A stretch of DNA of 64,000 nucleotides from an uncultured archaeon (GCA_963845175.1 CAWJRI010000016.1:6670-70669), one strand, 5' to 3'. Shown: positions 5,582 to 58,992, numbered from the stretch's first letter. Made by a program: numbers and translations. Notes: generated from the sequence alone by a model not told the origin.

Positions 5582-6208
5582 CTATTTACTATTCTGCTGT
5601 TTTAAAGTGCTATTTTTTTGTTTTATGATGCAGAAGTAATTGTAAAGTTCTTTCTGGTGCCCGAGACTCCCCTCAAGGTCTATGTAAAAATTCTTTGTGT
5701 TTGTCAGCCATTCATCGGAAATGTTCAGCTGGCTGAACTCATTTGGGTATTTTTCCTTTAGCTCATTTATGTTTTGGAGTGCATTCCTTCCAAACTCGAT
5801 TGACATATTCTTATTTTGAAACGATTCCAAAATGCTTTCATTATTGGAACATATTATTCCATATTTTTCAATGTCCCCCTTGTAAGTCTTGTATGCAAGC
5901 ATGTAATGCTTTTCTGACAGAAGAAGGTTTTTTCTGAATGAAGCATAAAGATTGGTTGTTTCTGCACCAACTACTTTGCTGTATTCTTTTGTTATCGGGT
6001 CAATCTCGTTAATATTTAACGGGTCAGGATACCTTGGGTGCATCCTCAAATATTCAAGCCCATTGCTGTAATCAGAGAACGAGATATTGTTTGCAGCGTC
6101 AATTTTATTTATTTTAGCGACCGCATAATTGAAATTGTTGCCTGTAAAAAATTCAGCCATCGAGCAGGCAGTGCACAGCAACAGTACGAGTATTGCAAGT
6201 CTTTTCAT
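5582..6208 (-). CDS. hypothetical lipoprotein
   Basis: The internal ATG at 6208 gives MKRLAILVLLLCTAC (signal peptide plus lipobox-like LLCTAC). Low GC, no family recognised. Confidence 0.5.
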   Translation of the reverse strand: MKRLAILVLLLCTACSMAEFFTGNNFNYAVAKINKIDAANNISFSDYSNGLEYLRMHPRYPDPLNINEIDPITKEYSKVVGAETTNLYASFRKNLLLSEKHYMLAYKTYKGDIEKYGIICSNNESILESFQNKNMSIEFGRNALQNINELKEKYPNEFSQLNISDEWLTNTKNFYIDLEGSLGHQKELYNYFCIIKQKNSTLKQQNSK

Positions 6209-6261
6209 ATCCCAGGTTAGCAAAGAACTAGTATTTAAAGTTTCTGAACCAATAAACCCGT

Positions 6262-7074
6262 TCAAAATTTATCTGTCCTTGTATAATCTATGTCCTGCTT
6301 CTTCAGCATATCAACTATTTTCTGCTTGTTCTCCTTCAAGCCTTTCCAATCAAGGATTACAATGTTTGCTGAGCTTGTGCTTTTTGTCAGTGCCTGCTCA
6401 AGCATCTCTTCATCTAAATTTTCCAGATTGTATTTCGGGCAGGCATGGCCCAGCGCAATGTCTGTTTTCAGGACAATTTTCTTGAAATTCGTTGTTGTGT
6501 GCTGTCCGCCGATGCCGAATGCTGTTTTGTAATCAGGGATTTCAGCTGTGACAAGATGATAGATTACTTCTGCGATTATTTTTCCAGCTTCCTTGTTGCT
6601 CCACTGCTCCTCCGACGAGCCGATTTCAATGAACATCACCGGCTTTTCAAGGTAAGGTCCGTGATGCGTGCATTCCTGGACAACTTCAAAGCCAAGATTA
6701 TTCAGTTCCTCTAATTTTATGATTGCTTCCTTCAAATAATTTGCAGGCGCAATGCACAATTGCCTGTCTTTTCCGCCGAACTCCGCCTTTCCCCAGTTGC
6801 CTGGCGCATGTGCGCTTAAAGAAGGAATTTTTGCCTGCGACTGGTGCTTTGTAGCAAATATGAACAAGTCAGCTTCTATTTTTTTGTCAATGTTTTCGCA
6901 GTGGATTGAGTCTGTTTCTGTGATGTAGAGTTTTGTTTCTGTTGATTCTAATTCGTAGATTGGCTCTTTTTCGAATTTATAATTTGTTGCCTTGAACAGA
7001 TAGAGAAGGCGAAGGGAATTTGCTATGTTCATCCCCGCCGGATCCTTCTTTGAAGAGATTACTGCGATTTTCAT
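6262..7074 (-). CDS. dtdA: D-aminoacyl-tRNA deacylase, archaeal DTD2 type
   Basis: MKIAVISSKKDPAGMNI start and ECTHHGP motif. The 270-aa size matches the archaeal tRNA_deacylase family. Confidence 0.8.
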   Translation of the reverse strand: MKIAVISSKKDPAGMNIANSLRLLYLFKATNYKFEKEPIYELESTETKLYITETDSIHCENIDKKIEADLFIFATKHQSQAKIPSLSAHAPGNWGKAEFGGKDRQLCIAPANYLKEAIIKLEELNNLGFEVVQECTHHGPYLEKPVMFIEIGSSEEQWSNKEAGKIIAEVIYHLVTAEIPDYKTAFGIGGQHTTTNFKKIVLKTDIALGHACPKYNLENLDEEMLEQALTKSTSSANIVILDWKGLKENKQKIVDMLKKQDIDYTRTDKF

Positions 7075-7197
7075 ATTTCTATGATTTTTCTGGCTTATTA
7101 TAAATGTTTCCGAAAGATTTAAATATAAGTATATTTATATACATTAAAAATTGTAATTAATTGAATAAATAAAAAAGTAAAAAAATAAGTATATAAT

Positions 7198-9540
7198 ATG
7201 AAAAAACTGCTTGTTTTCGTCGTATTTCTGATTTCTGTAGCAGTCGCTTTTGCAGAGCAGAATCCCGGGCATCCCGCCAGCCAGATTGATCCCGGGGCAT
7301 TTCCCGCAGGCAATTACTCCTTGCAGCCAGGATATGGTTTGTACTGGGGGAATCCTACTAATTCAAACCAACATGTAAATGTTGACACCAGCGGAAATCT
7401 CTGGATTGGCAAAACCGGCGGAGCATTTTTGAAGTTTGACACTAATGGAAACATTGGTGTTGGGACAGCAAATCCAGCTTCAAAACTTGACATTAATGGG
7501 GTTTTGACTGTCGAACCTGTTGTGGATGTTTCAACCATACAGACCAATAGTGCTAATTCATTGATGAACTTTTCAACAGCCAGGTCTTCAGATAATTGGA
7601 AAAGTTTTATATTCACATCCAATAACAAAAATTTATTGACAATTCTGCAGTCAGGCAACGTCGGCATCGACACGACGAACCCATTGTACGCTCTTCATGT
7701 TGCAGGTACAGTTCAATCAGACAGATATAGAGTAGGGCCTACTGGAATTTCAGTTGCATACCAGAGCGGGTCTGATTTACAGATTGGAAGTGGCGCATCA
7801 GGCAATCCTTTAGTATTTATGGCTGGCGCAGAAAGAATGAGAATAACAGATACTGGCTACGTCGGCATCGGCACGACAAGCCCGGGCTCTAAATTAGATG
7901 TGAATGGAGACATTAATTTAAATGGACTTTTGAAAATAAGTGGAGCAAGCGGAGCAACAGGCAATGTTCTTACCAGAACAGCAACAGGCATGGCTTGGCA
8001 AACTCCTGCAGCAGGAGGCACTGGAGTTTTACCCTCAGGCACATCTGGCCAGACACTGCGCAACGACGGAACAAACTGGGTAGCGAACAGCGTATTGTTC
8101 AATAATGGAGCAAGCGTCGGCATCGGCACGACAATCCCAAATTCAAATACTTGGTTGCAACTTGGTGCTCCAAGCGGCGCAGTTTATGGCACTCTTAGTT
8201 TAAAATCAAAAAATTATGTCGGAGGAGGTTATGGAGGCATTTGGCTAGAAGCAAAAGATAACACTAATGCAATTGCCATATTTCATACTGGTTCGTTAGG
8301 AGTGATACGTACAGATTGGACAGGAACTGGCGGTTATACTGCTCCACTTGCTATTATTGGCAGCAGCGTCGGCATCGGGATGACGCCAAGTTCTGGAGAA
8401 ATGCTTGATGTTGCTGGGAATATACATATGGCTGGTCACGACCCGAAGATATATATGGTGGATACAACTGGCGGTGGCGGCCAAAAATCATTTAGTCTAA
8501 GAAGCGGTTATTCTGCAGATGGCATGTTTCAGATTTGGGATGATACAGCGAATGTAAATAGGCTTGCGATAGACACAAACGGCAACGTCGGCATCGGCAC
8601 GACGAATCCTAGCAGTTATAAACTAAACGTAGCAGGAGGCAGTTACGGAACACTTTCAACTGGAAGCACTTATGGACTTTATGGTGCATCTTCTAATTAT
8701 GTAGGAGTAAGAGGTGATGGCTCTTCTGCAGGAGGTTTTTTTTATAATACAGGCACAGGCAGTTCCGCTTACCTTGGTGATGGTAGCTATGGACTTTACA
8801 CAAATAATCCTATATCTGTAGACACAACCACAACAGGAAGCATTGAGTTGATTAAAGGAGATGGAACTAGTTGGGTCAGTTCCACTCTTCAACATTTAAA
8901 TGGTGCAAACCCTGATATGACTTGGTATAGAGTTCTTTATCCAGGTAATCCTGGTTATGCATGGGACGAAATCTATAATGTAGATAGGTATTCCATTTAT
9001 ATTGGCGGTGCAGGAGAAGCATTAACTGTTAAAAGCACAGGCAACGTCGGCATCGGCACTACGAGTCCAAGCTATAAATTAGATGTCAGTGGCGATGCAA
9101 GAGTAAGCACACTTTCGATTGGTTTTACTCCTAGTTCAGGTTGGGGGATAAAATCTTATGGTAGTTCTGTGGGGGTTTACGGAGAAACTAATACTGGAAA
9201 TGCTGTTCAAGGATACGCATATGGTAACGGTAATGGAATTCATGGCTATTCAACTAGTGGTTATGCAGGTTACTTTAATGGGAATGTGAAGATTGCAAGC
9301 GGAGGAACACTATCAGGTGTTCACATTGCAATTGATAAAAGTAGCTGCTTCACTAGTGTGCATGAAGGTTCTTTGGCATATGGAATTTCAGGTGGTTTCA
9401 CTGGTAGCACTGATAATGCAGATTGTTTTGTAGATTCGACTGGAACTACAACTGTTGACACTTATGTTGCAGTGGGTTATAGAAATGATGGCTCTGACGA
9501 TAGGGTGCTTTGCTGCAAACTTATAATTGCGGCGGGCTAA
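7198..9540 (+). CDS. secreted fibre/adhesin-like protein with GNVGIGT repeats (paralog 1)
   Basis: Signal peptide MKKLLVFVVFLISVAVAFA. The N-terminal module NPGHPASQIDPGAFPAGNYS..GYGLYWGN is shared with the ORF at 10976. At least 7 copies of (S/N)GNVGIGT(T)(N/S)P..KL(D/N)V. G/S/T/N-rich, with a Cys-containing C-terminal tip. Confidence 0.7.
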   Translation: MKKLLVFVVFLISVAVAFAEQNPGHPASQIDPGAFPAGNYSLQPGYGLYWGNPTNSNQHVNVDTSGNLWIGKTGGAFLKFDTNGNIGVGTANPASKLDINGVLTVEPVVDVSTIQTNSANSLMNFSTARSSDNWKSFIFTSNNKNLLTILQSGNVGIDTTNPLYALHVAGTVQSDRYRVGPTGISVAYQSGSDLQIGSGASGNPLVFMAGAERMRITDTGYVGIGTTSPGSKLDVNGDINLNGLLKISGASGATGNVLTRTATGMAWQTPAAGGTGVLPSGTSGQTLRNDGTNWVANSVLFNNGASVGIGTTIPNSNTWLQLGAPSGAVYGTLSLKSKNYVGGGYGGIWLEAKDNTNAIAIFHTGSLGVIRTDWTGTGGYTAPLAIIGSSVGIGMTPSSGEMLDVAGNIHMAGHDPKIYMVDTTGGGGQKSFSLRSGYSADGMFQIWDDTANVNRLAIDTNGNVGIGTTNPSSYKLNVAGGSYGTLSTGSTYGLYGASSNYVGVRGDGSSAGGFFYNTGTGSSAYLGDGSYGLYTNNPISVDTTTTGSIELIKGDGTSWVSSTLQHLNGANPDMTWYRVLYPGNPGYAWDEIYNVDRYSIYIGGAGEALTVKSTGNVGIGTTSPSYKLDVSGDARVSTLSIGFTPSSGWGIKSYGSSVGVYGETNTGNAVQGYAYGNGNGIHGYSTSGYAGYFNGNVKIASGGTLSGVHIAIDKSSCFTSVHEGSLAYGISGGFTGSTDNADCFVDSTGTTTVDTYVAVGYRNDGSDDRVLCCKLIIAAG
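7654..9060 (+). repeat. in-frame dispersed repeat, core ggcaacgtcggcatcggcac (encodes GNVGIGT)
   Basis: Copies at 7654 (1 mismatch), 7855 (variant), 8116 (variant), 8368 (variant), 8581 (exact) and 9040 (exact). All are in the reading frame of the 7198 ORF. Confidence 0.8.
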
Positions 9541-9546
9541 TTGAAA

Positions 9547-9714
9547 ATGACAACCATCAAACGCAAATTGTACAAAAGAGGCTCGAGCTTCGAGACAACC
9601 ATTCCCATGCCTCTTCTATTTGCTTTAGACAAGTCAAAGAAGCACAATGTTCTCTTCAGTTACGACAGCAGGATAAACAAATGGTATATTGATTTTGAGG
9701 TGATGAAGAAATGA
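9547..9714 (+). CDS. small AbrB/SpoVT-like (swapped-hairpin) protein, 55 aa, absent from the ORF track
   Basis: ATG at 9547 translates to MTTIKRKLYKRGSSFETTIPMPLLFALDKSKKHNVLFSYDSRINKWYIDFEVMKK. KRGSSFETTIPMPLL resembles the AbrB-fold strand-turn-strand (compare KLISFGSSSYVISIPKAW in the PhoU-like ORF at 44510). Its TGA overlaps the ATG at 9711 (ATGA). Confidence 0.45.
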   Translation: MTTIKRKLYKRGSSFETTIPMPLLFALDKSKKHNVLFSYDSRINKWYIDFEVMKK

Positions 9715-10979
9715 AATTCGTAATGCACGGAGCTGCACAGGAAGTCGGAAGAAGCTGCATTGAAGTAAACACAAAAGGAACAAGATTCCTTCTTGATGCA
9801 GGCGTCAAAATCTCGCCTGACATTGATTATCCAACGCCAATAGAAAATCTCAAGGGCATTGACGTTGTTTTCATCTCGCATGCACACCTGGATCATTCGG
9901 GAATGCTTCCGATGTTCGACTATCAGGGTCTGAACTGCCCAATCATAGGCACAGCTGCGACAAGGGCAATAACATATGAGCTGTTAATAGATTCATACGA
10001 AATAGATAGGCTGAAGAAAAATCGTGTTGTCTACCAGAAGGCAGATGTGAGAAGGATTGCGCAGAGCATAAGAATCCATGGATTGAATGAATGGTACAAG
10101 TTCAAGAACATCAGATTCAAATTGTATGATGCAGGGCACATTCCCGGCTCAACATCTGTGATGGTTAACGCAGATAACAAGAACATTCTCTACACAGGCG
10201 ACATAAACACAGACCCGACTCTGCTTCTGAATCAGGCAGATACAAACTATGAGGAAGATGTTGACGTTCTAATTATTGACTCAACCTACGGCGACAGGGA
10301 CCATCCTGACAGAAAGAGCACAGAAGACGATTTTATCGCAACAGTCAGAGAAAAATTTGAGAAAGGCTCTGTGCTCGTGCCTGCATTCGCAGTCGGAAGG
10401 GCGCAGGAGCTGATGATTTTATTAAACAAAAAGAAGTTTGGGCTCCCTATTTATCTTGACGGCATGGCAAGAAGGGTTACAAAGGACCTGTTCAACTATC
10501 CAGATGATGTCAGGGACATTGGGGCGCTGAAAAATTCATTCCATAATTTGAAAGAAGTTCACGGGATGAGGGAAAGGGCAAACATAGTGAAGGAAAGGGC
10601 AGTCTTCATGACAACATCTGGAATGCTTGACGGCGGGCCTGTGATAGAATATCTGAAGCATTTCCATTTTGACCCTGACACATCAATTTTGCTTACAGGC
10701 TATCAGGCAGAGGGCTCAAATGGAAGGAACCTGCTGACCAGCAGGCACGTTAAATTAGACAACCAGAGAGTCACAGTGAAGAGTTTTGTGAAGCAGTTTG
10801 ACTTTTCAGCTCACGCAGGAATGACAGGATTGAGGAATCTCATAAAGAAAACAAATCCAAAGGCGCTTATTTTGAATCACGGCGATCCGCCGGCAATAGC
10901 TGCGCTGAAGGAATATGCAGAAAGCATCGGGATAAAGGCATATGCCCCGAAGCTTAATGATAAAATTGATGTAAGATGA
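9711..10979 (+). CDS. metallo-beta-lactamase / beta-CASP ribonuclease (aCPSF2-like, no KH domains)
   Basis: GAAQEVGRSCIEV, HAHLDHSG, YDAGHIPGS, FSAHAG and ILNHGDP motifs. 422 aa. Confidence 0.8.
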   Translation: MKFVMHGAAQEVGRSCIEVNTKGTRFLLDAGVKISPDIDYPTPIENLKGIDVVFISHAHLDHSGMLPMFDYQGLNCPIIGTAATRAITYELLIDSYEIDRLKKNRVVYQKADVRRIAQSIRIHGLNEWYKFKNIRFKLYDAGHIPGSTSVMVNADNKNILYTGDINTDPTLLLNQADTNYEEDVDVLIIDSTYGDRDHPDRKSTEDDFIATVREKFEKGSVLVPAFAVGRAQELMILLNKKKFGLPIYLDGMARRVTKDLFNYPDDVRDIGALKNSFHNLKEVHGMRERANIVKERAVFMTTSGMLDGGPVIEYLKHFHFDPDTSILLTGYQAEGSNGRNLLTSRHVKLDNQRVTVKSFVKQFDFSAHAGMTGLRNLIKKTNPKALILNHGDPPAIAALKEYAESIGIKAYAPKLNDKIDVR

Positions 10980-12991
10980 AAAAAATAATTTATGCACTGC
11001 TGATGCTGTTGACATTAGCTACGGCATTGGCAGACGTGCCGAATCCAGGGCATTCAGCCAACCAAGTCGGTCCAGGAACATTTCCCGCAGGCAATTATTC
11101 CATGCAGTCAGGTTACGGCTTGTACTGGGGTAATTCTGTAAATACAAACCAGCACATAAATGAATACAGCGGCGACCTCTGGATTGGAAGAGCATCTCCA
11201 GGAGCCTGGCTGAAGCTTGACAAGAATGGAAACATCGGCATAGGGACACCGAATCCAGCTCAAACTCTTGACATATCAAGCACTGGAGGAGAAACGGGGA
11301 TACAGATTACAAACAAAGGAACAACAGGAACAAGAACTCCTTTGATTCGTTTTGCAAAGGGCACAGCAGATAAATGGGGTTTGCTTACAGGCGACTCGGG
11401 TGACGGATTAGATGATAAATTCTACATCTGGAACTACATAAATTCTCCAGCAGGTGTTGCACAGATGACATTTGACACGAATGGCGACGTTGAAGTTGCC
11501 GGCAAAGTAATGGCAAATGCATTCTGCATCGCAGGAGCATCCCCTGAGTGTACAACCAGTTGGACAACCGGCGGAGGCTTCTGGACAAGGTCAGGAGCTA
11601 CTCTTAGTCCAGCCACTGCGGACGACAGCGTCGCAGTTGTCAGAAACAATGGCAATCAAATAAGCTTGAGAACCACTTCACAGATGTGGGACTTGGATGT
11701 AAATGCAAATGATAATTATTTTAAAATTCGTGACATGAGCATTTCAGGCGGACCAGCTCGGCTGGTTATTGATAAGTCAGGCAACGTCGGGATTGGAACA
11801 ACGCCGGGAGCGACATTGGACATTGCTGGTTCAAATGTTGCAACAGAAACAACCCCACACCTGAAATGGGGTTATGGCGGTTATTTCAAATCCTGGGCAG
11901 AGACCGGTGCCCTAAATCTTATAGGTTTTGTTTCTGATAGTTCAAATTGGAATATGTACATTGGCTTAAAAGGCGGGCAATCAAGTTACGGCTACGGCAA
12001 ATTAATTTTTAGGACAGGCACAAGTTCGTCCTATGCTGACAGAATGACAATTGACCAGAACGGCAACGTCGGCATCGGCACAACGAATCCGCAGGCAAAG
12101 CTTGATGTGCGTGATACAGCGCGTGCGATGGCATCAGCACTTGATTTATACAAAGATGGCACTCAAATAAGAGAATTTGACAGTTTAGGTGTTCAGCACT
12201 TTTACTGGTGGCTGGATGTGGCAAATAATCAACTGCTGCTAAAAGGCGCGCCATCATCGAATGTTATTGCAAGCTTTAACAACAACGGCAACGTCGGCAT
12301 CGGCACGGCATCTTCGTATAAAGATGCAGATGTCCAAATAGGCAGCGTCAGAAAAATTGTATTGGGAAATACTGGTGGAAATCATGTTCCTTTTTATGGC
12401 GAATATATAGGATTTCATACGGCCATAAATTTGGATGATGCGCACTTTATAAAACTTGCAGGGGGCACTGCAACAGGTGGCGACCAATACGGCGGCGGAC
12501 TTATCGGGACGGATTATGTTGGAAACATGTATTTTTACGCATTTAATACCGCCGACAACGTTAATCAAGTAGATGTTGGAGCAATTTCACCTCGTGTTAC
12601 AATCACAAATACAGGCAACGTCGGCATCGGCACATTGAGTCCTGGAGAAAAACTAGATGTAAATGGTAATATTAGAGCAACAGGCACTATTACTCCTTCG
12701 GATGAAAGGCTAAAAACAGACATCAAACCGATATCTAATGTCTTGGATAAATTGTTGCAGCTTAACGGGGTATCTTTTGTATGGAAGAATGACGAGACAA
12801 AAAAACAAAACATAGGACTGATTGCCCAGGATGTAGAAAAAGAATTCCCTGAAGTAGTTTCCACAAGTGAAGACGGCTACAAAGGAATTGATTATAGCAA
12901 ACTAACACCTATTCTGATTGAAGCAGTCAAAGAACTCAAAGCAGAAAACGACGCCCTAAAGCAAAGAGTGGAAGCACTGGAAGCAAAATGA
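10976..12991 (+). CDS. secreted fibre-like protein with GNVGIGT repeats and a C-terminal S74-type intramolecular chaperone domain (paralog 2)
   Basis: Signal peptide. The N-terminal module PNPGHSANQVGPGTFPAGNYS..GYGLYWGN is paralogous to the 7198 ORF. Five GN(V/I)GIGT repeats. The C-terminus is TPSDERLKTDIKPI...LNGVSFVWK...GLIAQDVEKEFPEVV...IDYSKL plus a coiled coil. Its ATG overlaps the upstream stop (ATGA). Confidence 0.75.
   Translation: MKKIIYALLMLLTLATALADVPNPGHSANQVGPGTFPAGNYSMQSGYGLYWGNSVNTNQHINEYSGDLWIGRASPGAWLKLDKNGNIGIGTPNPAQTLDISSTGGETGIQITNKGTTGTRTPLIRFAKGTADKWGLLTGDSGDGLDDKFYIWNYINSPAGVAQMTFDTNGDVEVAGKVMANAFCIAGASPECTTSWTTGGGFWTRSGATLSPATADDSVAVVRNNGNQISLRTTSQMWDLDVNANDNYFKIRDMSISGGPARLVIDKSGNVGIGTTPGATLDIAGSNVATETTPHLKWGYGGYFKSWAETGALNLIGFVSDSSNWNMYIGLKGGQSSYGYGKLIFRTGTSSSYADRMTIDQNGNVGIGTTNPQAKLDVRDTARAMASALDLYKDGTQIREFDSLGVQHFYWWLDVANNQLLLKGAPSSNVIASFNNNGNVGIGTASSYKDADVQIGSVRKIVLGNTGGNHVPFYGEYIGFHTAINLDDAHFIKLAGGTATGGDQYGGGLIGTDYVGNMYFYAFNTADNVNQVDVGAISPRVTITNTGNVGIGTLSPGEKLDVNGNIRATGTITPSDERLKTDIKPISNVLDKLLQLNGVSFVWKNDETKKQNIGLIAQDVEKEFPEVVSTSEDGYKGIDYSKLTPILIEAVKELKAENDALKQRVEALEAK
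11228..12634 (+). repeat. in-frame dispersed repeat, core ggcaacgtcggcatcggcac (encodes GNVGIGT)
   Basis: Copies at 11228 (diverged), 11780 (diverged), 12062 (exact), 12287 (exact) and 12614 (exact). Confidence 0.8.
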
Positions 12992-13317
12992 AAGACAAAC
13001 TAAGAGACGCAATCAAGAACTGGAATTATGACGAATTGAGAAGGTTCGAGAAAGAGATAGGGATGGGAGGCAGGGAAATTAAGAAAATAATCTGGGAGAA
13101 GATGCAGGAGCTGGACAACAGCACGAAGTTCTGCACAACCTGCTTCGCAGAGCTGGAGCCCCGCGAAACAGCCTATACATTGATATTTGGACCGGAAGAT
13201 TTTAAAAAGAAAGCGTCTTTCTGCGCTGTTGATTGCCTTCAATACTTCCTGAGCCACATAAGGGAGCTGGAGAAGATCAAGAGGAAGACAAGGTCAAAAA
13301 ATGATGCAAATCGCTGA
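12988..13317 (+). CDS. small protein with TRASH/zinc-ribbon-like Cys motif
   Basis: 109 aa. FCTTC...(26 aa)...FCAVDC gives a C-x2-C...C-x3-C arrangement. Basic C-terminal tail. ATGA overlap with the fibre gene stop. Confidence 0.4.
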   Translation: MKDKLRDAIKNWNYDELRRFEKEIGMGGREIKKIIWEKMQELDNSTKFCTTCFAELEPRETAYTLIFGPEDFKKKASFCAVDCLQYFLSHIRELEKIKRKTRSKNDANR

Positions 13318-13349
13318 TTTGCGCATTTTAACTCATGAGGTTCGTTAAA

Positions 13350-13733
13350 ATGAAAAGGATTAGCCTGCTGCTGTTGCTGCTGCTTACCGGATGCAGCTCA
13401 TTCATAACAGCAGGAACAGTTCTTGATGTCCCGAATGCAGAGGCAAAACTTGCCTGCACAAACGACGTTAAGATAGCTCTGATTGAAAATACAAATTCCT
13501 GCTATGACTCAAATTCAATCAGAATTGCAGTTGAAAACAACGGAATCGATGTTGCCGGGCTGATTGTGAACAACATAACAATAGAAAAGCCAATCAAGAA
13601 AGGCGGAATTCTTATTGAAAAAATCAACTACAGTAATTTTGATGGAAACCTTGAGATAAAGCCAATACTTAAGCTGGACAACAGGGAGTTTGCCTGCAGC
13701 AATTCTTTGGATAAAACAATTGAAAAGTGCTAG
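13350..13733 (+). CDS. hypothetical lipoprotein
   Basis: MKRISLLLLLLLTGCSS (lipobox LTGC) from the ATG at 13350. No family recognised. Confidence 0.5.
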   Translation: MKRISLLLLLLLTGCSSFITAGTVLDVPNAEAKLACTNDVKIALIENTNSCYDSNSIRIAVENNGIDVAGLIVNNITIEKPIKKGGILIEKINYSNFDGNLEIKPILKLDNREFACSNSLDKTIEKC

Positions 13734-13763
13734 TTTTATAAATTTTTCTGTCTAATAAACTGC

Positions 13764-27904: not shown

Positions 27905-29797
27905 ATGGGAGACATCATAAAAGAAATTTTAAGCAGAATTCCAGAAAACGAGATAGCTGACGCTGTATTCGAGGGCGCAAACATAGTTCTGTACACAAAG
28001 GATAAGGATTTTTTCCTTGAGCCCGGCACGAAAATCAGGGAGATTGTGGATGAATTAAAAAAGAGGATAGAGCTTAGGCCGGACCCGTCGATAACACTAA
28101 ACCAGGAAAAGGCAGAAGCTGAAATTAAAAAAGTAATCCCGGAAGAAGCAGGCGTCTCAAATATAATCTTTGACCCGCAGAGGTCCAGGGTAATAATCGA
28201 AGTCGAGAAGCCGGGGCTTGCAATCGGAAAGCAGGGCGAGCTTCTGAGGGAGATAAAGCAGAAAACATTGTGGGTTCCGCTTGTAAGAAGGACGCCTGCA
28301 ATAAGGTCTGTCCTGATTGAAAACATAAGAAATGTTCTTTACCAGAATTCTGATTACAGGAGAAAATTCCTTAACAAGATCGGGCACAGGATTTATGACG
28401 GCTGGCTGAGAGGAAAAAAGAATGAGTGGATAAGGGTTTCATATCTTGGCGGGGCAAGGCAGGTCGGAAGAAGCTGCATACTTCTACAGACACCTGAGTC
28501 AAGGGTGATGCTTGACTGCGGAATAAACGTCGCAGCAGAAAGCGAGCACGCCTATCCGAAGCTCGAGGCGCCTGAATTCAAGATCGACGAGCTGGACGCG
28601 ATAGTCATAACGCACGCGCATCTCGACCATTCTGGTTTTGTTCCTTACCTTTACAAGTTCGGCTACAAGGGGCCGACTTACTGCACAGCGCCCACAAGAG
28701 ACATCATGGCATTACTTCAGCTTGATTTCGTAAAAATCCAGCAGAGTGAGGGCAAAGACCCGATTTACACCAGCGACGACATAAAGGAGATGGTCAAGCA
28801 CACAATCTGCCTTGACTTTGAAGAAGTTTCTGACATAACACCCGATGTGCGCATGACTTTGTACAACGCAGGGCACATAATCGGAAGTTCGATGATACAT
28901 CTGCACGTCGGAAACGGGCTGCATAACATACTTTACACAGGCGACCTTAAATATGGAAGAACAGAATTGCTTGAGTCAGCTGCGACGCAGTTCCCAAGGC
29001 TTGAATCACTGATGATTGAAAGCACTTACGGCGGAAAGGACAATATCCTGCCTCCACTCAAAGAAGAAGAAGACGAGTTTAGAGATGTTGTAAAAGAAAC
29101 TGTCAAAAGAAAAGGCAAGATACTTATTCCTGTGCTCGGAACAGGAAGAGGACAGGACATGATGATTATTGTTGAGGACATGATAAGGAGAGGTGAGCTT
29201 GAAAAGATTCCTGTTTACATTGACGGCATGGTCTGGGATGTTACAGCAATCCACACTGCTTATCCTGAATTCCTTAATAGCAACATAAGAAAGCAGATCT
29301 TCCACAAGGATGAAAATCCATTCCTTTCAGAAATATTCAAAAGAGTCGGCTCGAAAAAGGAAAGGGACCAGATACTTGAGGAGGAGGGAAGCTGCATAAT
29401 ACTCGCAACATCTGGAATGCTTGTAGGAGGCCCTTCTGTCGAGTACCTGAAGGCACTGGCAAACAGCTCCAGGAACACGCTGATTTTTTCATGCTACCAG
29501 CCAGAGGGCTCGCTCGGCTGGAGAATAAGGAACGGCGAAACAGAATTCACATTCACCGAGGGGACAAAGCAGGAAGTTATGAAAGTGAACATGGAAGTGA
29601 CGAGGTTTGAGATAACAGACCACTCAGACAGGAAGCAGCTGATGAACTTTGTCTACAAATGCGAACCGAGACCGAAGAAAATAATTGTCAATCACGGCGA
29701 AAGCTCAAGATGCCTTGATTTGGCAAGCTCAATGCACAGGCAGTACAGGGTTGAGACAAACTGCCCGAGAAATCTTGAAGCAGTAAGGCTGAGATGA
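27905..29797 (+). CDS. fttA: aCPSF1 / FttA, KH-domain beta-CASP ribonuclease (transcription termination factor)
   Basis: N-terminal KH region (IIEVEKPGLAIGKQGELLREI), GGARQVGRSC, HAHLDHSG, YNAGHIIGS, TDHSD and VNHGE. 630 aa. Confidence 0.9.
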   Translation: MGDIIKEILSRIPENEIADAVFEGANIVLYTKDKDFFLEPGTKIREIVDELKKRIELRPDPSITLNQEKAEAEIKKVIPEEAGVSNIIFDPQRSRVIIEVEKPGLAIGKQGELLREIKQKTLWVPLVRRTPAIRSVLIENIRNVLYQNSDYRRKFLNKIGHRIYDGWLRGKKNEWIRVSYLGGARQVGRSCILLQTPESRVMLDCGINVAAESEHAYPKLEAPEFKIDELDAIVITHAHLDHSGFVPYLYKFGYKGPTYCTAPTRDIMALLQLDFVKIQQSEGKDPIYTSDDIKEMVKHTICLDFEEVSDITPDVRMTLYNAGHIIGSSMIHLHVGNGLHNILYTGDLKYGRTELLESAATQFPRLESLMIESTYGGKDNILPPLKEEEDEFRDVVKETVKRKGKILIPVLGTGRGQDMMIIVEDMIRRGELEKIPVYIDGMVWDVTAIHTAYPEFLNSNIRKQIFHKDENPFLSEIFKRVGSKKERDQILEEEGSCIILATSGMLVGGPSVEYLKALANSSRNTLIFSCYQPEGSLGWRIRNGETEFTFTEGTKQEVMKVNMEVTRFEITDHSDRKQLMNFVYKCEPRPKKIIVNHGESSRCLDLASSMHRQYRVETNCPRNLEAVRLR

Positions 29798-30663
29798 AAA
29801 AGGCATTAAAGATTGTTTTGATTGTTGTTGCAGTTCTGATAATTTTGGCAGTTGTAGGATTTGTTTCTGTCATGGGAACAAGCACAAGGACAGCTTATCT
29901 GAAAATAGACAATGGCACAGTTGAAGTTGACAAGGGCAGCGGCTGGACAGCTGCAGCAGACAACATGGATCTTTCGCTGAATGACAAAGTAAGGACAGCT
30001 GACGGCGAAGCATCAGTCATTCTCTATGAAAGCATCATAGTGCAGCTTGAAAAGAACACAGAAGTTTTGATAAAGGATTTGGCAAAGAACAATGTTGTTG
30101 TTAAGCAGGCTAGCGGAACAACCTGGAATAAGTTCACGGGGCTGAGTGGCGTCAAGGGCTATGAGGTGGAAACGCCGACGACAGTGGCAACTGTCAGGGG
30201 AACAGAGTTTGGAATAAATCTTTCTCAGGTGATGGTCGGCGAAGGCGAGGTTGATGTTTCAGCAGATGGCCAGAATCTTACAGTATTTGAAGGAGAGAAG
30301 TCAGATCTTCTGTTTGACAAGCTTACAAAACTTAATCTAACACCTGAAGAAAAGCAGTTTGTTTTGAAGAGACTTGCAAAAAGCCTCGAAAGACTCAAGG
30401 AGATGAGAATGGCTCAGCTGAATAAGCATAGCTTTTTGCTTAATCAAATCAAAAAAATGCGCAATTTAACTGACGCAGACATCCAGAGGGGATTTGCAAA
30501 GCTTGACAGCGGCAATTTGACAGAGGAAGAAATAATGAAAAAGATGCCGATTCCGCTGCAGAAGCTGCCTGTTTCAAAGAATTCTATTGATAAGATAATT
30601 GAACTGAACCAAAAAATTAGGAAACAGCAGCAGTTCATGAAGAAGTTAAAGGGAGGACAATAG
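29794..30663 (+). CDS. FecR-domain membrane-anchored protein
   Basis: N-terminal TM (IVLIVVAVLIILAVVGFV). VRTADGEASVILYESIIVQLEKNTEVLI...TPTTVATVRGTEFGI resembles the FecR fold. ATGA overlap with the aCPSF1 stop. Confidence 0.6.
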   Translation: MKKALKIVLIVVAVLIILAVVGFVSVMGTSTRTAYLKIDNGTVEVDKGSGWTAAADNMDLSLNDKVRTADGEASVILYESIIVQLEKNTEVLIKDLAKNNVVVKQASGTTWNKFTGLSGVKGYEVETPTTVATVRGTEFGINLSQVMVGEGEVDVSADGQNLTVFEGEKSDLLFDKLTKLNLTPEEKQFVLKRLAKSLERLKEMRMAQLNKHSFLLNQIKKMRNLTDADIQRGFAKLDSGNLTEEEIMKKMPIPLQKLPVSKNSIDKIIELNQKIRKQQQFMKKLKGGQ

Positions 30664-30673
30664 TTAATGGAAA

Positions 30674-32608
30674 ATGCACAGGGCTAAAACAGGCGTTTGC
30701 CTGGCGATTTCACTGGCTTGTGCACTTGTTTTTTCTCTGCTTTTTTATTTTGGATTTTATTCAAACATACAGCTGAAGCTGAGCGACAATCTCTACGGCG
30801 GGAGGAATGCGCTCGACAGCATAGTCATCGTGGCGATTGATGACAAGAGCCTGCAGGAGATTGGAAGATGGCCCTGGGACCGCGAATGGTTTGCCAAGGC
30901 AATAGATTTTCTGAATGAAAGCAAGACAGTTGGGATTGATGTTGCTTTTTTTGAGGAGTCCAGCAAAGAAACTGATGCAAGGCTCGCAGAAGCGATGAAA
31001 AATTCGCACAATGTCGTGATTCCTGTTGAATACACTTCTTTTGAAAGTGTAAATGGAAGAGTTGTAGGCAAGGATATGCTTTATCCAGTCGGTGAGCTCG
31101 GGAAATCCGCCAGAGGTTTGGGCTATGTCAATGTTGTCACAGACAGCGACGGTGTTACAAGGGCAGTCAATCTTGATGTCAGCGACAAATATTCGAATTT
31201 CGCAGAAACAGTCTACAGGCTTTACTGGAAAAATGAGACAGTAAAGAGAACAAGCAGGTTTCTTGTGAATTTTGTCGGGAAGCCGAAAAGCTTCAATTAC
31301 TATTCATTCACAGACATTGTCCACGGGCGCGTGAACAAAAGCGTCTTCAGGGGAAAGCTTGTCTTTATCGGCTCAACTTCGCCTGACATGCACGATGATT
31401 ATTTTGTGCCGACATCTCAAGGCAAGGCGATGCCTGGCGTAGAGGTGCACGCAAACACTGTGCAGACAATGATTACAAAGAGATTCCTGGGCAACGAGCC
31501 GAAATGGCTTGTAATCCTTTCTCTTTTTATTTTTGCCGCGATTGTCGCGCTCCTTGTGGACAGGCTTAATATCTGGCTTTCGGGTGCAATTGCCTTTGCA
31601 TTATTTTTAGTCTACACGCTGGTTTCAATTAAGATTTTTGACTTCGGCACCATAATGAATTTTATCTATATCCCTGCAGTGATTTTATTTTCCTATGTTT
31701 CTGTTCTTGCCTACTCATACCTGACAGAGCAGAAGTCCAAGAAAAATATAATGGGCGCGTTTGGCAAATATGTCTCGCCAGTTATTGTTGAGCAGATAGT
31801 GAAGCATCCCGAGAAGCTTAAGCTCGGCGGTGAGAAAAGAAATGTTACAATCCTGTTTTCCGACATAAGGGGATTTACTTCGATTTCAGAAAAGCTCACG
31901 CCTGAAAAACTTGTAACTCTGCTTAACGAATATCTTTCAGCAATGACCAATATCGTGCTCGAGCACAGCGGGCTGGTTGACAAATACATCGGCGACGCAA
32001 TCATGGCATTCTGGAATGCCCCGCTGGACCAGCCGAAGCATCCGAAGCTTGCCTGCTCAACAGCGCTTGGGATGATAAATAAACTTGGCGAGCTCCAGCT
32101 GAAATGGAAAAAAGAGGGGCTGCCGCATATTGACATAGGCATTGGATTGAATACAGGCGACGCAGTAATAGGAAACATGGGCTCCTACGATAGGTTTGAT
32201 TACACTGCAATGGGAGACAATATCAACCTGGGCTCGAGGCTGGAAGGGCTGACAAAACAGTATGGCGTGAAAATAATAATAAGCGAGTCAACCTATGAAA
32301 AGGTTAAGGATGAATTTGTTGCAAGGAAGCTTGACTTGGTTAGCGTCAAGGGAAAGACAAAGCCTGTCTTCATTTATGAATTGGTCTGCAGGAAAAATGA
32401 GCTGACAAAGAAAAATACGGAATCAATAAAGCATTACGAAGCTGGGCTGAATCTTTACTTTGCAAGGAAATGGGACAGTGCGCTGAATGAATTCAGCAGG
32501 CTGAAGGATGACAGGCCAGCAGAGGAATTCATCCAGCGCTGCAGGAATTTCAAGAAGAGCCCGCCTCCAAAAGGCTGGAACGGTACCTGGATAATGAAGA
32601 CGAAGTAA
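30674..32608 (+). CDS. CHASE2-sensor class III adenylate/guanylate cyclase
   Basis: CHASE2 start (IVIVAIDDKSLQEIGRWPWDR), 3 TM segments, then the cyclase core VTILFSDIRGFTS...KYIGDAIMAFWNAP...GIGLNTGDAVIGNMGS...YTAMGDNINLGSRLE. Confidence 0.85.
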   Translation: MHRAKTGVCLAISLACALVFSLLFYFGFYSNIQLKLSDNLYGGRNALDSIVIVAIDDKSLQEIGRWPWDREWFAKAIDFLNESKTVGIDVAFFEESSKETDARLAEAMKNSHNVVIPVEYTSFESVNGRVVGKDMLYPVGELGKSARGLGYVNVVTDSDGVTRAVNLDVSDKYSNFAETVYRLYWKNETVKRTSRFLVNFVGKPKSFNYYSFTDIVHGRVNKSVFRGKLVFIGSTSPDMHDDYFVPTSQGKAMPGVEVHANTVQTMITKRFLGNEPKWLVILSLFIFAAIVALLVDRLNIWLSGAIAFALFLVYTLVSIKIFDFGTIMNFIYIPAVILFSYVSVLAYSYLTEQKSKKNIMGAFGKYVSPVIVEQIVKHPEKLKLGGEKRNVTILFSDIRGFTSISEKLTPEKLVTLLNEYLSAMTNIVLEHSGLVDKYIGDAIMAFWNAPLDQPKHPKLACSTALGMINKLGELQLKWKKEGLPHIDIGIGLNTGDAVIGNMGSYDRFDYTAMGDNINLGSRLEGLTKQYGVKIIISESTYEKVKDEFVARKLDLVSVKGKTKPVFIYELVCRKNELTKKNTESIKHYEAGLNLYFARKWDSALNEFSRLKDDRPAEEFIQRCRNFKKSPPPKGWNGTWIMKTK

Positions 32609-45747: not shown

Positions 45748-47166
45748 TTAAACTTTTGATTCTGATTTCATTCCCAAATAATGTGCATATTTATTTCTGA
45801 TCGGCTCAACTAATTTCAGGAAGTCGTCCACTTGTTCAACTGACCTTCCGATGAATTCATCTGAATTCTTAAGAACCGTTTCAACTTCTTTTGCATTTAG
45901 GGGGATCTCTTTGTCATCCTCGATTTTTTGAAGCAGATTATTTGATTTTCCTTGCTTGATAGCGTCCCCTGCTTCCATTGCATATTGCTTAAGCCTGCCG
46001 TGCAGGTAATTCCTATCCCCTCCTTTCTTAACAGCTTCCATTAAAATAGTATTAATTGCCATAAATGGAAGCTCCCGCATTAAGTTCTGCTCTATAATCT
46101 TATGGTTTACAACAAGACCGTCCATTACTCTTAAATAAACTTCAAGAATAGCATCAGCACTCAAAAAAGCATCAGGTATTATCAGTCTTTCAATCGCGGA
46201 ATTGTCTAAACTGCGTTCAAGCCATTGAACTGCAGCTGTCTCTGCTGATGAAGCGATCAGCCCCCTTGAATAACGCCCAAGCGAGCAAATCCTTTCAGAT
46301 GTCATCGGGTTTCTTTTATAAGGCATTGCAGAAGAGCCCACCTGGTCTTTGCCAAACGGCTCTTCAACTTCCTTGTCGTGCTGCATCAGCCTGATGTCTA
46401 TGGCTGCTTTTTCAGCTGAAATGGCTATTTGAGCAAGCGTCGATACCATTTGGTAAACAAAAAGCTTTGGATATGTCTGGCCGGTTATTGGAAACGTCTC
46501 CTTAAATCCAAGCTCCTTAGCAACTAATTTGTCCAATTCAACAGCCTTTTCCTTGCTTCCAAGCAGAGTTATTGTGTCTGCCATAGTTCCAGTGGCCCCT
46601 TTAACCCCTCTTCCCTTAAAATTTTCTCTTCTATATTCCAAATCCTGAAGAGCCATCAAAAACTGATAACCCCACATTGAAATTCTTTTTCCCAGTGTCG
46701 GTGGCTGTGCAGGCTGGTAATGAGTGTAGCCAAGAAGCATCAGATCCTTGTGTATTTCTGCGTCTTTTGCAGTCAAATCAATTGCATTGGCAACCTTTGG
46801 TATAATCAAATCAAGGGCATCTCTTATCTGCATTAATTCAGCATTGTCTGTAACATCACAACTTGTCAGTCCTGCATGAATTATTCCTTTTGCTGATTCT
46901 GCCTGCTCCCCGTAGGCGCGTATGTGCGACATAACATCATGCCTTGTCTTTTTTTCTATTTCATTTGCTCGCTCTAAATTCAAGTTGTAAATATATTTTT
47001 CAAGGTCAGCTATTTGTTCGTCAGAATAATTCATTCCAAGGTTTTTTTGTATTTTTGCAACAGCAAACCAGACCTTTCTCCAATTAGAAAATTTTGTCTC
47101 TTCACTCCAAATCTTTAGCATATCCTTGCTTGGGTATCTTGTCCAGAGCGGGTCCATTTCTTTCAC
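45748..47166 (-). CDS. purB: adenylosuccinate lyase
   Basis: Fumarate-lyase signature GSSAMPYKRNP. 472 aa. Confidence 0.95.
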   Translation of the reverse strand: MKEMDPLWTRYPSKDMLKIWSEETKFSNWRKVWFAVAKIQKNLGMNYSDEQIADLEKYIYNLNLERANEIEKKTRHDVMSHIRAYGEQAESAKGIIHAGLTSCDVTDNAELMQIRDALDLIIPKVANAIDLTAKDAEIHKDLMLLGYTHYQPAQPPTLGKRISMWGYQFLMALQDLEYRRENFKGRGVKGATGTMADTITLLGSKEKAVELDKLVAKELGFKETFPITGQTYPKLFVYQMVSTLAQIAISAEKAAIDIRLMQHDKEVEEPFGKDQVGSSAMPYKRNPMTSERICSLGRYSRGLIASSAETAAVQWLERSLDNSAIERLIIPDAFLSADAILEVYLRVMDGLVVNHKIIEQNLMRELPFMAINTILMEAVKKGGDRNYLHGRLKQYAMEAGDAIKQGKSNNLLQKIEDDKEIPLNAKEVETVLKNSDEFIGRSVEQVDDFLKLVEPIRNKYAHYLGMKSESKV

Positions 47167-48287
47167 CTCACATAAGCTTCCAGTGACTTTCTTACTTTAT
47201 CAATCGGCGGGGCGTCGAAAATATTCCTTCCAATGACTGCGTTTGCCATTGACGTGTAAATGTCGCTTATTATCGCCAGAAATTCTGCAGGCAGATGCTT
47301 CGGCTTGTTTACCATCTTCCCTTTCCAGCCTTCTGCTCCTTTTTTCTCCTCAACTTCCTTTACCCATTCTGGCTGATTGTTCCTGTACCACTGCCTTGCC
47401 ACTTCCTTGCTCATCTGCACACCATCCATGGTAAACCTGCATTCGTCAGGCGTTCCGAGAACGTCAACAAACATAAACTCCCTTCTGTATGTTCTATAGG
47501 GTGATATTCCGAACTCAAACTTTCCGTCATCATTGTTTATGCCCAGCGGAGCCATTGTTTCTGTAATTAGCTTGTTGCCCTTGTTAAGCAGCGCTTTTAT
47601 CCTTTCCAATTCCTCATTATCGAGCCCCGAAAGCCTTTGCGCCTCATTCCATTTCATGTAGCGGTCGCCGTCTTCAATCTTCGTGCTAACATCAAAATAC
47701 GGCTGAGGAAGCTTTTCACCTTCGACAGGCATGTGGTCGAGGCCCAAATCCTGATATGTCAGAGTTCCTTTATTTAGCCTATCAAATACAGAGCTTCCCT
47801 TTGGAAGCGTGTTCCTGTACATAACTTCCAATGGAATAAGGATATTTCTTGGGCTTTGCTGGTAAACAGAATAGTCATATAGAACATATTCCTCAATTTT
47901 TTCATCATTTTTTATTGGTGCAATTCCAATATACTCTTTCTTATCCATTTCAGTTATTTCTTTCACCCTTCTTGCAGGCAGCTCCGGCTTCATCACAAAT
48001 TTTACCCACATTTCATTCGACGGGTTTAAAAATTGCTTATTCACAAAATACCTTTTTTCATCATCACCTATTTTCAGTCCTGCATATGAACTTTCAATGC
48101 CCATCTTTTTAAGCTCTTCAAAGAAATAAGCTGACATCATGCAGAGTGCAGCTCCCTTGTTTTTTATGTGGTCTGGCATCTCGCCCCAGTCAAAAACAGA
48201 ATACCTATCTGAGAAACCGAAAAGTCCCCACCCCATTTTTCTAAGTTCAACTGGTTTTAAAATCTTAATGTCTTTTGTACTTCCCAT
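47163..48287 (-). CDS. purC: SAICAR synthase (long form)
   Basis: FSDRYSVFDWGEMPDHIKNKGAAL and a SAICAR_synt core with insertions. Operon position. 4-nt overlap with purB. Confidence 0.8.
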   Translation of the reverse strand: MGSTKDIKILKPVELRKMGWGLFGFSDRYSVFDWGEMPDHIKNKGAALCMMSAYFFEELKKMGIESSYAGLKIGDDEKRYFVNKQFLNPSNEMWVKFVMKPELPARRVKEITEMDKKEYIGIAPIKNDEKIEEYVLYDYSVYQQSPRNILIPLEVMYRNTLPKGSSVFDRLNKGTLTYQDLGLDHMPVEGEKLPQPYFDVSTKIEDGDRYMKWNEAQRLSGLDNEELERIKALLNKGNKLITETMAPLGINNDDGKFEFGISPYRTYRREFMFVDVLGTPDECRFTMDGVQMSKEVARQWYRNNQPEWVKEVEEKKGAEGWKGKMVNKPKHLPAEFLAIISDIYTSMANAVIGRNIFDAPPIDKVRKSLEAYVR

Positions 48288-48288
48288 C

Positions 48289-49164
48289 TTATTTCACCTC
48301 TATTAGTTTTTTCAAGTCATTTAAATCCTTCAGCATGTGAAGTTGTTTGTGACCTTCATATTTCTGTCTTCCTTTAACCAATTCATTCTTAATGTTTTCC
48401 AAAATCTCCAGATTTTTTCTTCCGATTATCTTTGCGGCGTAAATCGCCACATTTGTCGGGTTTAAGATTCCAACGTTTAATGTGTTGTGATCTCTATTAT
48501 CCTGTATTGCCTCCACATATGCTAATACCTCTGTTTTTGAATGCGCGGAAATGCTGTGCGGATAACCAGAAATAACAAGCTCTTCATCTAATATAATAGG
48601 ACCCATCGCGGAAATGATTAACTGATTTGGCTTGTCAAGCTTGCTTCCATGTTTCACAGCTTCATTATTTACTCCTAACTTTTTAAGCTCGCTTGAAATT
48701 TTTTCACCAAAAGTGGTTGAGTCCAGGCTGTAGCAGACAATTGCGCCATCATATTTTTTCTTAGCAGCAATATAACCAAGCATTAAAGCATCTTCAATGC
48801 AGTTAATCCTGACGCATCCGACAGGGTAGCCTGGCGGAAGCTCGCTTGAGGATAATAACGAAGATAACCCGTCTGTTGCCTTGTCAGAAATTGGAAGCCC
48901 AATTACAATTGTTCCCAAATCTGCCATTCTGACGTAATCACTTACCAGCGCATTAGTCAGCCCAGCACCTGCGATAATTACATCCCAAGGAAGACCTCCT
49001 AACTTGGTTCGTGCAAACTCCTCAACCTTTTCCGGAGTCCTATGCGCAGAAGCAATTCCAACATAAATATCAGCATCAGTAGGTTTGGTTGCCATAAGTG
49101 CGTCCAACCTTTCCGACAGCTTCAAATCAGACGGGCTTCCCAAACCAATAAGTATGTTTACCAT
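48289..49164 (-). CDS. purE: AIR carboxylase/mutase PurE with a degenerate second PurE-like half
   Basis: GLGSPSDL, ASAHRTPEKV and IIAGAGLTNAL in the first ~140 aa. The second half repeats weakly (ISAHSKTE, NPTNVAIYAAKIIG). Confidence 0.75.
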   Translation of the reverse strand: MVNILIGLGSPSDLKLSERLDALMATKPTDADIYVGIASAHRTPEKVEEFARTKLGGLPWDVIIAGAGLTNALVSDYVRMADLGTIVIGLPISDKATDGLSSLLSSSELPPGYPVGCVRINCIEDALMLGYIAAKKKYDGAIVCYSLDSTTFGEKISSELKKLGVNNEAVKHGSKLDKPNQLIISAMGPIILDEELVISGYPHSISAHSKTEVLAYVEAIQDNRDHNTLNVGILNPTNVAIYAAKIIGRKNLEILENIKNELVKGRQKYEGHKQLHMLKDLNDLKKLIEVK

Positions 49165-49167
49165 TTT

Positions 49168-50455: not shown

Positions 50456-50516
50456 TTTTTCATCACCTCAAAATTTTAATTTTGACGGGGCTGAAAATCT
50501 CCTGATTTTCACCGCC

Positions 50517-54244: not shown

Positions 54245-54245
54245 T

Positions 54246-55343: not shown

Positions 55344-55347
55344 TTTT

Positions 55348-56076: not shown

Positions 56077-56087
56077 TTTTCATCACC

Positions 56088-57188: not shown

Positions 57189-57303
57189 CTAGATTTATTA
57201 GTTTACAAGCTGTTTTATATAGTTTTCCAGAAGATTTTCGTACCAAGTTTGTGACGAATATGCCTCAATAAAGCTTAAATATTAACTCACTTTAGCAATC
57301 TCC

Positions 57304-58928: not shown

Positions 58929-58992
58929 AACACGCGCGGTTACGCGCTTAACTATTATGACACTTGTCTAATAGCTTTTTCCCGCCCTAACA

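Follow-up and report, generated by a model that had tools for sequence, protein, structure and literature searches.

The closest systems described so far are the mosaic adhesive trimer (MAT) fibres of Bdellovibrio bacteriovorus, a superfamily reported by Caulton et al. in 2024 (PMC10769870). MAT proteins are defined by a signal peptide followed by a conserved N-domain and a trimeric beta-helical shaft with a capping-loop motif along its edge (VG-G/N-pi-xxPxxxL), and they end either in an S74 chaperone/protease domain with an SDxxxK motif or in one of several unrelated non-S74 tips. These fibres are displayed on the surface of the predator, one member binds glycans, and their tips have been swapped in the course of evolution (PMC10769870). 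Full-text literature searches found no paper on MAT-type fibres in archaea and none tying S74 fibres to DPANN archaea or Patescibacteria; one cryo-electron tomography study describes tail-fibre-like "antennae", sited on the host cell and not on its DPANN partner. Here, we describe two genes for secreted MAT-like fibres, fib1 and fib2, in a stretch of 64,000 nucleotides (nt) of DNA from an uncultured archaeon (GCA_963845175.1, CAWJRI010000016.1:6670-70669), which we call the window. Since the named homologues of the beta-CASP ribonuclease (RNase) encoded between the two fibres carry Woesearchaeota or Nanoarchaeota labels, the source, as far as sequence can tell, is a Woesearchaeota-type DPANN archaeon. 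We consider it probable that fib1 and fib2 are surface attachment fibres with swappable tips, inserted into a conserved trio of genes for a small 55-residue protein, the beta-CASP RNase and a 109-residue protein (p109), and that their role is attachment to a partner, a host or a glycan.

fib1 (7198-9540, plus strand) encodes 780 amino acids (aa) and represents the non-S74 class, and fib2 (10976-12991, plus strand) encodes 671 aa and represents the S74 class. Read by eye, each begins with a Sec-type signal peptide at aa 1-19, MKKLLVFVVFLISVAVAFA followed by EQ in fib1 and MKKIIYALLMLLTLATALA followed by DV in fib2, with a KK n-region, a hydrophobic core and a cleavage motif in which the cut falls between AFA and E (fib1) or between ALA and D (fib2). 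The N-terminus that comes next is common to the two proteins, with 53 of 79 residues identical (67%, E=5e-30, residues 22-99 against 23-100), and the signal peptides and common N-terminus described in an earlier note on this DNA are thus confirmed. The N-terminal module (N-module) spans aa 20-81 in fib1 and 20-82 in fib2. The same note had taken a segment of about 90 aa to be the module; it is indeed common to both fibres, but its second half already behaves like a first shaft repeat, where most of the other matches to the profile exclusively fall, in several stretches. What is specific to the N-terminus is confined to about 25 residues that follow the signal peptide (NPGHxASQxxPGxFPAGNYS) and to a lineage-specific stretch. 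Recent gene conversion between the two N-termini was considered and rejected, their DNA identity being only about 70%.

The shafts carry seven G(N)VGIGT-type motifs in fib1 and five in fib2, and none was found in any other frame of the window, so the repeats noticed earlier are real and belong to the fibres only. These motifs also connect both proteins to the MAT family. In phmmer searches against all PDB sequences, fib2 matches the Bdellovibrio protein bd2133 (8OND, E=2.5e-12) as well as 8OML and 8OL4, and fib1 matches 8OND (E=1.6e-6) as well as 8OL4 and 8OJN, with the alignments of both fibres anchored on GNVGIGTxxPxxKL. The S74 region of fib2 also matches a phage long tail fibre (6F45) and MyRF (7DC3), and both fibres match PHROG tail-fibre families (40 of them for fib2). 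The shaft/S74 family is very large, with more than 2000 matches among the candidates scored, and its closest full-length shaft homologues are 26-33% identical to the fibres. When the contigs of four non-self homologues were read, two of the proteins (P0038 and P0002) lay between bacterial housekeeping genes, one (P0030, on L089) lay in a phage-like contig, and one (P0003) was the fib1 orthologue of a related archaeon. The earlier proposal that these are secreted, modular fibres, alike at the base but unlike at their ends, is therefore sustained by shafts that are homologous to those of the Bdellovibrio fibres.

The two C-termini are unrelated, as had been claimed, but they are not both tips. 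fib1 has a Gly/Tyr-rich stretch at aa ~645-695 and then a tip with four cysteines at aa ~700-780 (C717, C743, C772 and C773); the region 9265-9537 (plus strand, aa 690-780) would be its candidate ligand-binding end. Searches of Pfam, PDB and PHROG gave no match for this tip, and its sole homologue is the tip of the positional orthologue P0003, at 57% identity. In fib2, the Peptidase_S74 domain (PF13884) is matched at residues 575-628 (12698-12859, plus strand) with E=1.1e-19 and a score of 70.9 bits (cut-off 22), over positions 1-57 of the 58 in the profile. The SDxxxK motif is intact as SDERLK at 575-580, which supplies the Ser575/Lys580 pair, and the S74 region as a whole occupies aa 575-671. 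Judged by its family, this domain is an intramolecular chaperone/protease and not a tip, and the mature end of fib2 would be the module preceding S575. Self-cleavage at S575 is predicted to leave a mature fibre of approximately aa 20-574.

The surroundings of the fibre genes are those of an archaeal chromosome, with ftsZ, secE, spt5, L11, dtdA, elp3, DUF655 and rpo4 in the flanks, and the comparison with related genomes is informative about how the fibres came to be there. In a 34-kilobase (kb) contig of ERZ1426824, whose beta-CASP protein is 93% identical to that of the window, the order is dtdA (minus strand), a fibre of 937 aa, the small open reading frame (ORF), beta-CASP, an S74 fibre of 948 aa, and genes for 109 and 127 aa, followed by elp3. 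In L083 (beta-CASP 71% identical), a fibre gene precedes the small ORF, but beta-CASP is followed directly by the 109-aa gene, with a 1-nt overlap, and fib2 is missing. L084 (53%) has dtdA and a 126-aa ORF on the minus strand, a small 54-aa ORF, beta-CASP and a 101-aa homologue of p109, with neither fibre nor lipoprotein, and in L003, L005 and L007 (42-44%) the p109 homologue immediately follows beta-CASP, then elp3 in L005 and L007, again with no fibre. No fibre gene was found in approximately 80 archaeal loci around beta-CASP homologues. Conservation of the order fibre, small ORF, beta-CASP, fibre, which the earlier note had proposed to check, is thus seen in the 93% relative only and not in those at 71%, 53% or 42-44%. 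Because the trio sits together without fibres in L084 and fib2 is missing from L083, we read the fibres as lineage-specific, fast-evolving and recent insertions into an older RNase operon, and not as parts of a dedicated fibre machine.

A parsimonious history would begin beside elp3 with an ancestral unit that comprised the small protein, beta-CASP and p109. The intergenic slot on the dtdA side would then have received a fibre gene, and a second fibre would have entered later, precisely between beta-CASP and p109, with the start/stop overlaps re-created. Co-expression of fibres and RNase would, under such a history, be a by-product of the insertion site and not evidence of a common function.

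Within the slot, the fibres change much faster than their neighbours. Between the window and ERZ1426824, beta-CASP has kept 93% identity, but for fib1 and P0003 (780 against 937 aa) the figure is about 26% in the shaft and 57% in the tip. The L083 fibre, which occupies the fib1 position, ends in a Cys-rich tip of another kind, not significantly similar to that of fib1, and the earlier suggestion of exchangeable tips appears reasonable in this light. Shaft length varies too, for in L086 (1420-1794), where dtdA is 94% identical, the residue equivalent to ~103 is joined directly to ~146 and one shaft repeat is missing. In its N-terminal cap, P0003 resembles fib2 (window 10976-11080; ADVPNPGHSANQ-GPG) more than fib1 (window 7198-7300), diverging from both after approximately 35 residues, and this hints at recombination or exchange among fibre paralogs. 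Tips that are swapped and a shaft that evolves fast, in a slot that stays fixed, make up the pattern that one would expect of proteins whose external ligand changes. As a separate matter, a T8 run inside fib1 (8736-8743), which encodes GGFFYN, could be an oligo-T terminator or a slippage-prone tract; the counterpart of this stretch in the L083 fibre is GGYFRD, which cannot encode T8.

The N-module has a much narrower distribution than the shaft. We searched a profile of it (residues 20-81/82) exhaustively against 1.84 billion representative proteins, and the complete module was present in three of them, namely fib1, fib2 and P0241, the last of which is a 119-aa fragment from the beginning of the L086 orthologue of fib1 described above. 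A word-indexed protein search with the N-module alignment found nothing, and the exhaustive hidden Markov model search was used in its place; among 241 million metagenome records, there were two N-module loci. The fibre-like proteins P0259, P0286 and P0324 have a shorter cap, NPGHxASQ(I/V)xPGxFPxGN(Y/F)(S/T)F, immediately behind the signal peptide or membrane anchor. Elsewhere, a 407-aa protein encoded at 724-1947 of L087, which is extremely rich in N-x-S/T sequons, bears the cap motif internally (SDIDPGTFPAGNYVFQQNVT), so that the short cap is a mobile element found in a broader group of proteins, probably archaeal glycoproteins.

The last gene of the cluster (13335-13733, plus strand) could also bear on how the fibres are held. 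It encodes a predicted lipoprotein of 132 aa, as had been suggested earlier, with a signal peptide and the lipobox L17-T18-G19-C20 (MRFVKMKRISLLLLLLLTGC; LLAGC in L083). Homologues of 127 aa are found in L083 (53% identity) and on the ERZ1426824 contig, and none was found in L084, L003, L005 or L007.

If the fibres work as their architecture suggests, each would be exported via Sec, lose its signal peptide and trimerise into a beta-helical shaft in which the GNVGIGTxxPxxKLxV motifs serve as capping loops. The S74 domain of fib2 would assist trimerisation and then cleave itself off at Ser575, exposing the last beta-helix module, and the fib1 trimer would end in a four-Cys tip capable of forming disulphides. 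Both would be retained on the cell through the N-module common to the paralogs, with the distal end binding a host or partner cell or a surface glycan, and tips and shaft length would change quickly by recombination and by insertion or deletion of repeat units.

It is also conceivable, although in our opinion unlikely, that the fibres are cellular and secreted but serve a purpose other than attachment, as structural fibres of the envelope or matrix or as decoys that bind viruses. Neither the N-module nor the fib1 tip has characterised homologues, and fast evolution is also expected of surface proteins that are exposed to viruses. On the other hand, all characterised members of the shaft family, that is, phage fibres and Bdellovibrio MATs, are adhesins acting on the surface of another cell (PMC10769870), and the swapping of tips at a fixed locus is a hallmark of changing binding specificity.

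Several observations nevertheless count against our reading of the fibres. The role of the N-module as a cell-proximal anchor is pure analogy with MAT fibres, and the analogy is imperfect, given that the module is shorter than the N-domain of approximately 130 aa in Bdellovibrio and that the known match is architectural. Its occurrence in only three of the 1.84 billion representatives makes for a narrow anchor module. Archaea have no outer membrane, so the anchoring of the fibres must differ from that in Bdellovibrio. The association of the lipoprotein with the fibres, being confined to fibre-bearing genomes among the few seen and not independent of phylogeny, is a weak hint that the two could be linked in function, and some such linkage inside the cluster may exist. 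Finally, a monomer model of the fib1 tip computed with AlphaFold2 (AF2) from a two-sequence alignment reached a predicted local distance difference test (pLDDT) score of 43, which is unusable for a fold search.

The earlier note had placed the fibres in an operon-like cluster, possibly with dedicated regulation. Taken to its full extent, this would be a dedicated, co-regulated fibre operon, in which a DNA-binding micro-protein and the RNase would specifically control or process the fibre mRNAs, and the zinc-ribbon protein and the lipoprotein would be accessory parts. Much of the underlying description is accurate, as all six ORFs are present at the coordinates that it gave and the ATGA start/stop overlaps at 9711, 10976 and 12988 can be read directly in the sequence. 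Six genes on the same strand, with three consecutive ATGA overlaps and gaps of 6-17 nt elsewhere (6 nt between fib1 and the small ORF, and 17 nt after p109), do look like an operon, the order is conserved in one relative (ERZ1426824), and the lipoprotein is confined to the fibre-bearing genomes seen. We nonetheless find a fibre operon with its own RNase and regulator very unlikely. Genomes that have no fibres still keep the small protein, beta-CASP and p109 together (the whole trio in L084, and beta-CASP with p109 in L003, L005 and L007), fib2 is missing from the 71% relative L083, and a conserved beta-CASP is present in many genomes of DPANN and other archaea. Nor do the overlaps imply a functional link, because tight packing is the norm in the window, where 37 of the 55 same-strand gene pairs are no more than 20 nt apart, and because even an unrelated pair, the genes for aCPSF1 and a FecR-domain protein, overlaps by ATGA; the cluster holds three of the six ATGA overlaps of the window. 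The T8 and T5 runs found inside the fibre genes are likewise unlike what one would expect of a streamlined polycistron.

We also find it very unlikely that the fibres are left over from an integrated virus or serve as virion tail fibres in an archaeal tailed virus, for although their PHROG tail-fibre matches are strong, S74 domains are classically viral and some shaft homologues lie in phage-like contigs (such as P0030 in L089), both fibres bear Sec signal peptides that fibres of a cytoplasm-assembled virion would not need, no capsid, terminase, integrase or other viral gene lies nearby, the flanking dtdA, L11, elp3 and rpo4 are syntenic, the same chromosomal slot is filled in several related genomes, and scans of 2.9 million viral contigs with both fibres gave one weak partial match and no close relatives.

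Returning to insertion of attachment fibres into an older operon, a likely promoter region for co-transcription of the cluster is the AT-rich intergenic stretch (7075-7197) that separates fib1 from the divergent dtdA (minus strand). It is the sole sizeable non-coding gap 5' of the cluster, its last 60 nt are 92% A+T, and several TATA-like runs lie within these 60 nt; co-transcription from it would be a consequence of the insertion. The sequence TTATAATT at 9523-9530 was considered as an internal promoter of the small ORF and dismissed as a chance occurrence, as its distance from the ATG is wrong for a leaderless start and P0003 does not conserve the motif. At the other end, the boundary region (13734-13763, plus strand, 30 nt) contains oligo-T runs directly after the lipoprotein stop codon and a TATA-like motif, TTTATAAA, at 13735-13742, 29 nt 5' of the elp3 ATG. 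The archaeal TATA box sits approximately 26-27 nt upstream of the transcription start. This arrangement suggests termination after the lipoprotein gene and a separate elp3 promoter that would yield a leaderless elp3 mRNA, and because the spacing fits and the oligo-T runs are present, the cluster probably ends at 13733.

The gene that the fibres bracket, beta-CASP (9711-10979, plus strand, 422 aa), is preceded by a Shine-Dalgarno-like motif (GAGGTGA) and has the Pfam domains Lactamase_B, Beta-Casp and RMMBL. Its residues H57, H59, D61, H62, H143, D164, H368 and H390, which are catalytic, are invariant, and its PDB matches are aCPSF1, FttA, CPSF73 and INTS11. The match to the aCPSF1 model is limited to positions 178-629, that is, after the KH domains (289.7 bits against a cut-off of 580), in keeping with the aCPSF2-like RNase that had been recognised earlier. 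Full-length homologues number in the thousands, and those among the matches listed are 42-53% identical, with one at 71%. Since a full-length aCPSF1/FttA, with KH_TffA, KH_2, metallo-beta-lactamase (MBL), beta-CASP and RMMBL domains, is encoded at 27905-29797, the 422-aa protein is, on its domain composition, a second, KH-less paralog with the architecture of the aCPSF2 type and a housekeeping-type gene of Woesearchaeota/DPANN. An assignment to Cas14 of type VII CRISPR systems (NF045584) was rejected, with 257 bits against a cut-off of 800 and a match to positions 1-434 of 612 only.

The small basic ORF upstream (9547-9714, plus strand) encodes 55 aa, or 57 aa with a TTG start at 9541. It is clearly a real gene, for the protein is 76-88% identical in L084 and L083, where beta-CASP is 53-71% identical, and it always overlaps the beta-CASP start, to which its translation would be coupled; in other words, it is more conserved than the RNase it precedes. 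These comparisons suggest that the protein is a tightly constrained partner or subunit of the aCPSF2-type RNase. Searches of Pfam and NCBIfam (E limit 0.1) and further sequence searches including PDB (E limit 10) gave no match, and an AF2 model, which was weak (pLDDT 62), has the order beta-beta-alpha...beta, compatible with a swapped hairpin of the AbrB/MazE type. A Foldseek search with this model gave no match with E<0.7, and hhalign against seven AbrB/MazE sequences found the expected register with P=0.0033 and a probability of 9.7%. We thus use "AbrB-like" as a hypothetical label.

Downstream, p109 (12988-13317, plus strand, 109 aa) has a helical N-terminal half and a C-terminal half with the pattern C-x2-C-x26-C-x3-C, which is invariant in six homologues. 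Five of the six family members match DUF7576 (maximum E-value 1), the best with E=2e-4, while the copy in the window, with 13.5 bits, stays below the gathering cut-off of 27; matches to DUF3330 are also weak. The Cys spacer of TRASH domains is 19-22 residues, shorter than the 26 of p109, and the protein is best described as zinc-ribbon-like and possibly TRASH-like. Profile searches of PDB with the 55-aa and 109-aa proteins gave chance matches only (Kelch repeats and designed helical bundles). p109 is a downstream partner of beta-CASP in a subset of Woesearchaeota. The trio of 55-aa protein, KH-less beta-CASP and p109 is in itself an observation that does not depend on the fibres: often near elp3, it occurs at 9547-13317 in the window, at 1400-3161 in L083 and at 7177-8918 in L084, with beta-CASP and p109 at ~10001-11650 in L003, L005 and L007.

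Other parts of the window deserve a brief mention. On the minus strand, 5582-6265 encodes a protein of 208-227 aa that matches no family and begins with a hydrophobic segment resembling a signal peptide; its gene, which has a 4-nt overlap with dtdA, is kept beside dtdA in L084 (45% identity) and L086 (85%). The aCPSF1/FttA gene has an ATGA overlap with the FecR-domain gene (29794-30663), and a gene for a CHASE2-adenylate/guanylate cyclase comes next (30674-32608), these two being unusual neighbours for the termination factor. Genes of the purine biosynthesis type lie within 45748-60657, namely adenylosuccinate lyase (45748-47166), PurL-like AIRS/FGAR-AT (51323-54274) and a glutamine amidotransferase (59107-60657), a set that exceeds the biosynthetic capacity usually assumed for DPANN genomes.

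Few molecular candidates exist for host recognition and attachment in DPANN archaea, and fib1 and fib2 would be concrete ones that offer experimental handles, such as defined domains, a predicted cleavage at S575, a small, lineage-specific candidate anchor module and natural tip variants among close relatives. A bolder proposal, which we regard as possible but would not yet favour, is that they are the first recognised archaeal counterparts of MATs, with which a DPANN episymbiont holds its host by means of phage-derived fibres whose tips are swapped and whose expression is wired to an essential RNase operon. If so, phages, predatory bacteria and ultra-small symbiotic archaea would have one attachment toolkit in common, and the NPGH N-module would be a new anchor for the archaeal envelope, possibly together with the co-occurring lipoprotein. 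What appears new here is the unexpected lineage, the lineage-specific N-module and the insertion history, the shaft and S74 parts being those of an already known family. The locus also indicates that fast-evolving surface genes can slot precisely into a conserved housekeeping operon, and it urges caution in reading function from gene overlap in compact genomes. In addition, the 55-aa and zinc-ribbon proteins that flank the KH-less beta-CASP may help to clarify what the RNases of the aCPSF2 type, which are poorly understood, do.

How, then, does the locus compare with known systems? For the RNase, the likeness is to archaeal aCPSF1/FttA and aCPSF2, with MBL, beta-CASP and RMMBL domains and all catalytic residues. 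Unlike aCPSF1/FttA, the protein has no pair of N-terminal KH domains, and unlike the described aCPSF2, it has flanking 55-aa and zinc-ribbon partners; its likeness to aCPSF2 is one of architecture. For fib2, phage S74 fibres and tailspikes, for example K1F endosialidase and the T5 L-shaped fibre (6F45, 8JOV), have the same Ser-Lys pair in their S74 domain, and they are likewise modular at the receptor-binding end and built as beta-helical trimers, an architecture predicted for fib2. In contrast to these, the protein in the window has a signal peptide, and it comes with no viral genomic context or close viral relatives.

The Bdellovibrio MATs (Bd2133 and Bd3182; 8OND, 8OML, 8OL4 and 8OJN) differ from the fibres of the window in several respects. 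The host here is a DPANN archaeon with no outer membrane, and the N-module is lineage-specific and approximately 60-80 aa long, as opposed to a beta-rich N-domain of approximately 130 aa. There are two copies here against 21 in Bdellovibrio, with lengths of 671-780 aa against approximately 1000 aa, and the archaeal fibres, known from their genes alone, are wedged in a housekeeping RNase operon. In both systems, however, the fibres are encoded by the cell and not by a virus, and the layout is alike in that a signal peptide is followed by an N-terminal segment common to the paralogs. Both also have a long shaft, with capping-loop motifs in Bdellovibrio that align to the GNVGIGT repeats here, and both comprise an S74 class with SDxxxK and a non-S74 class, of which fib2 and fib1 represent one each. 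Tip swapping, finally, is a feature of the archaeal fibres as it is of the bacterial ones.

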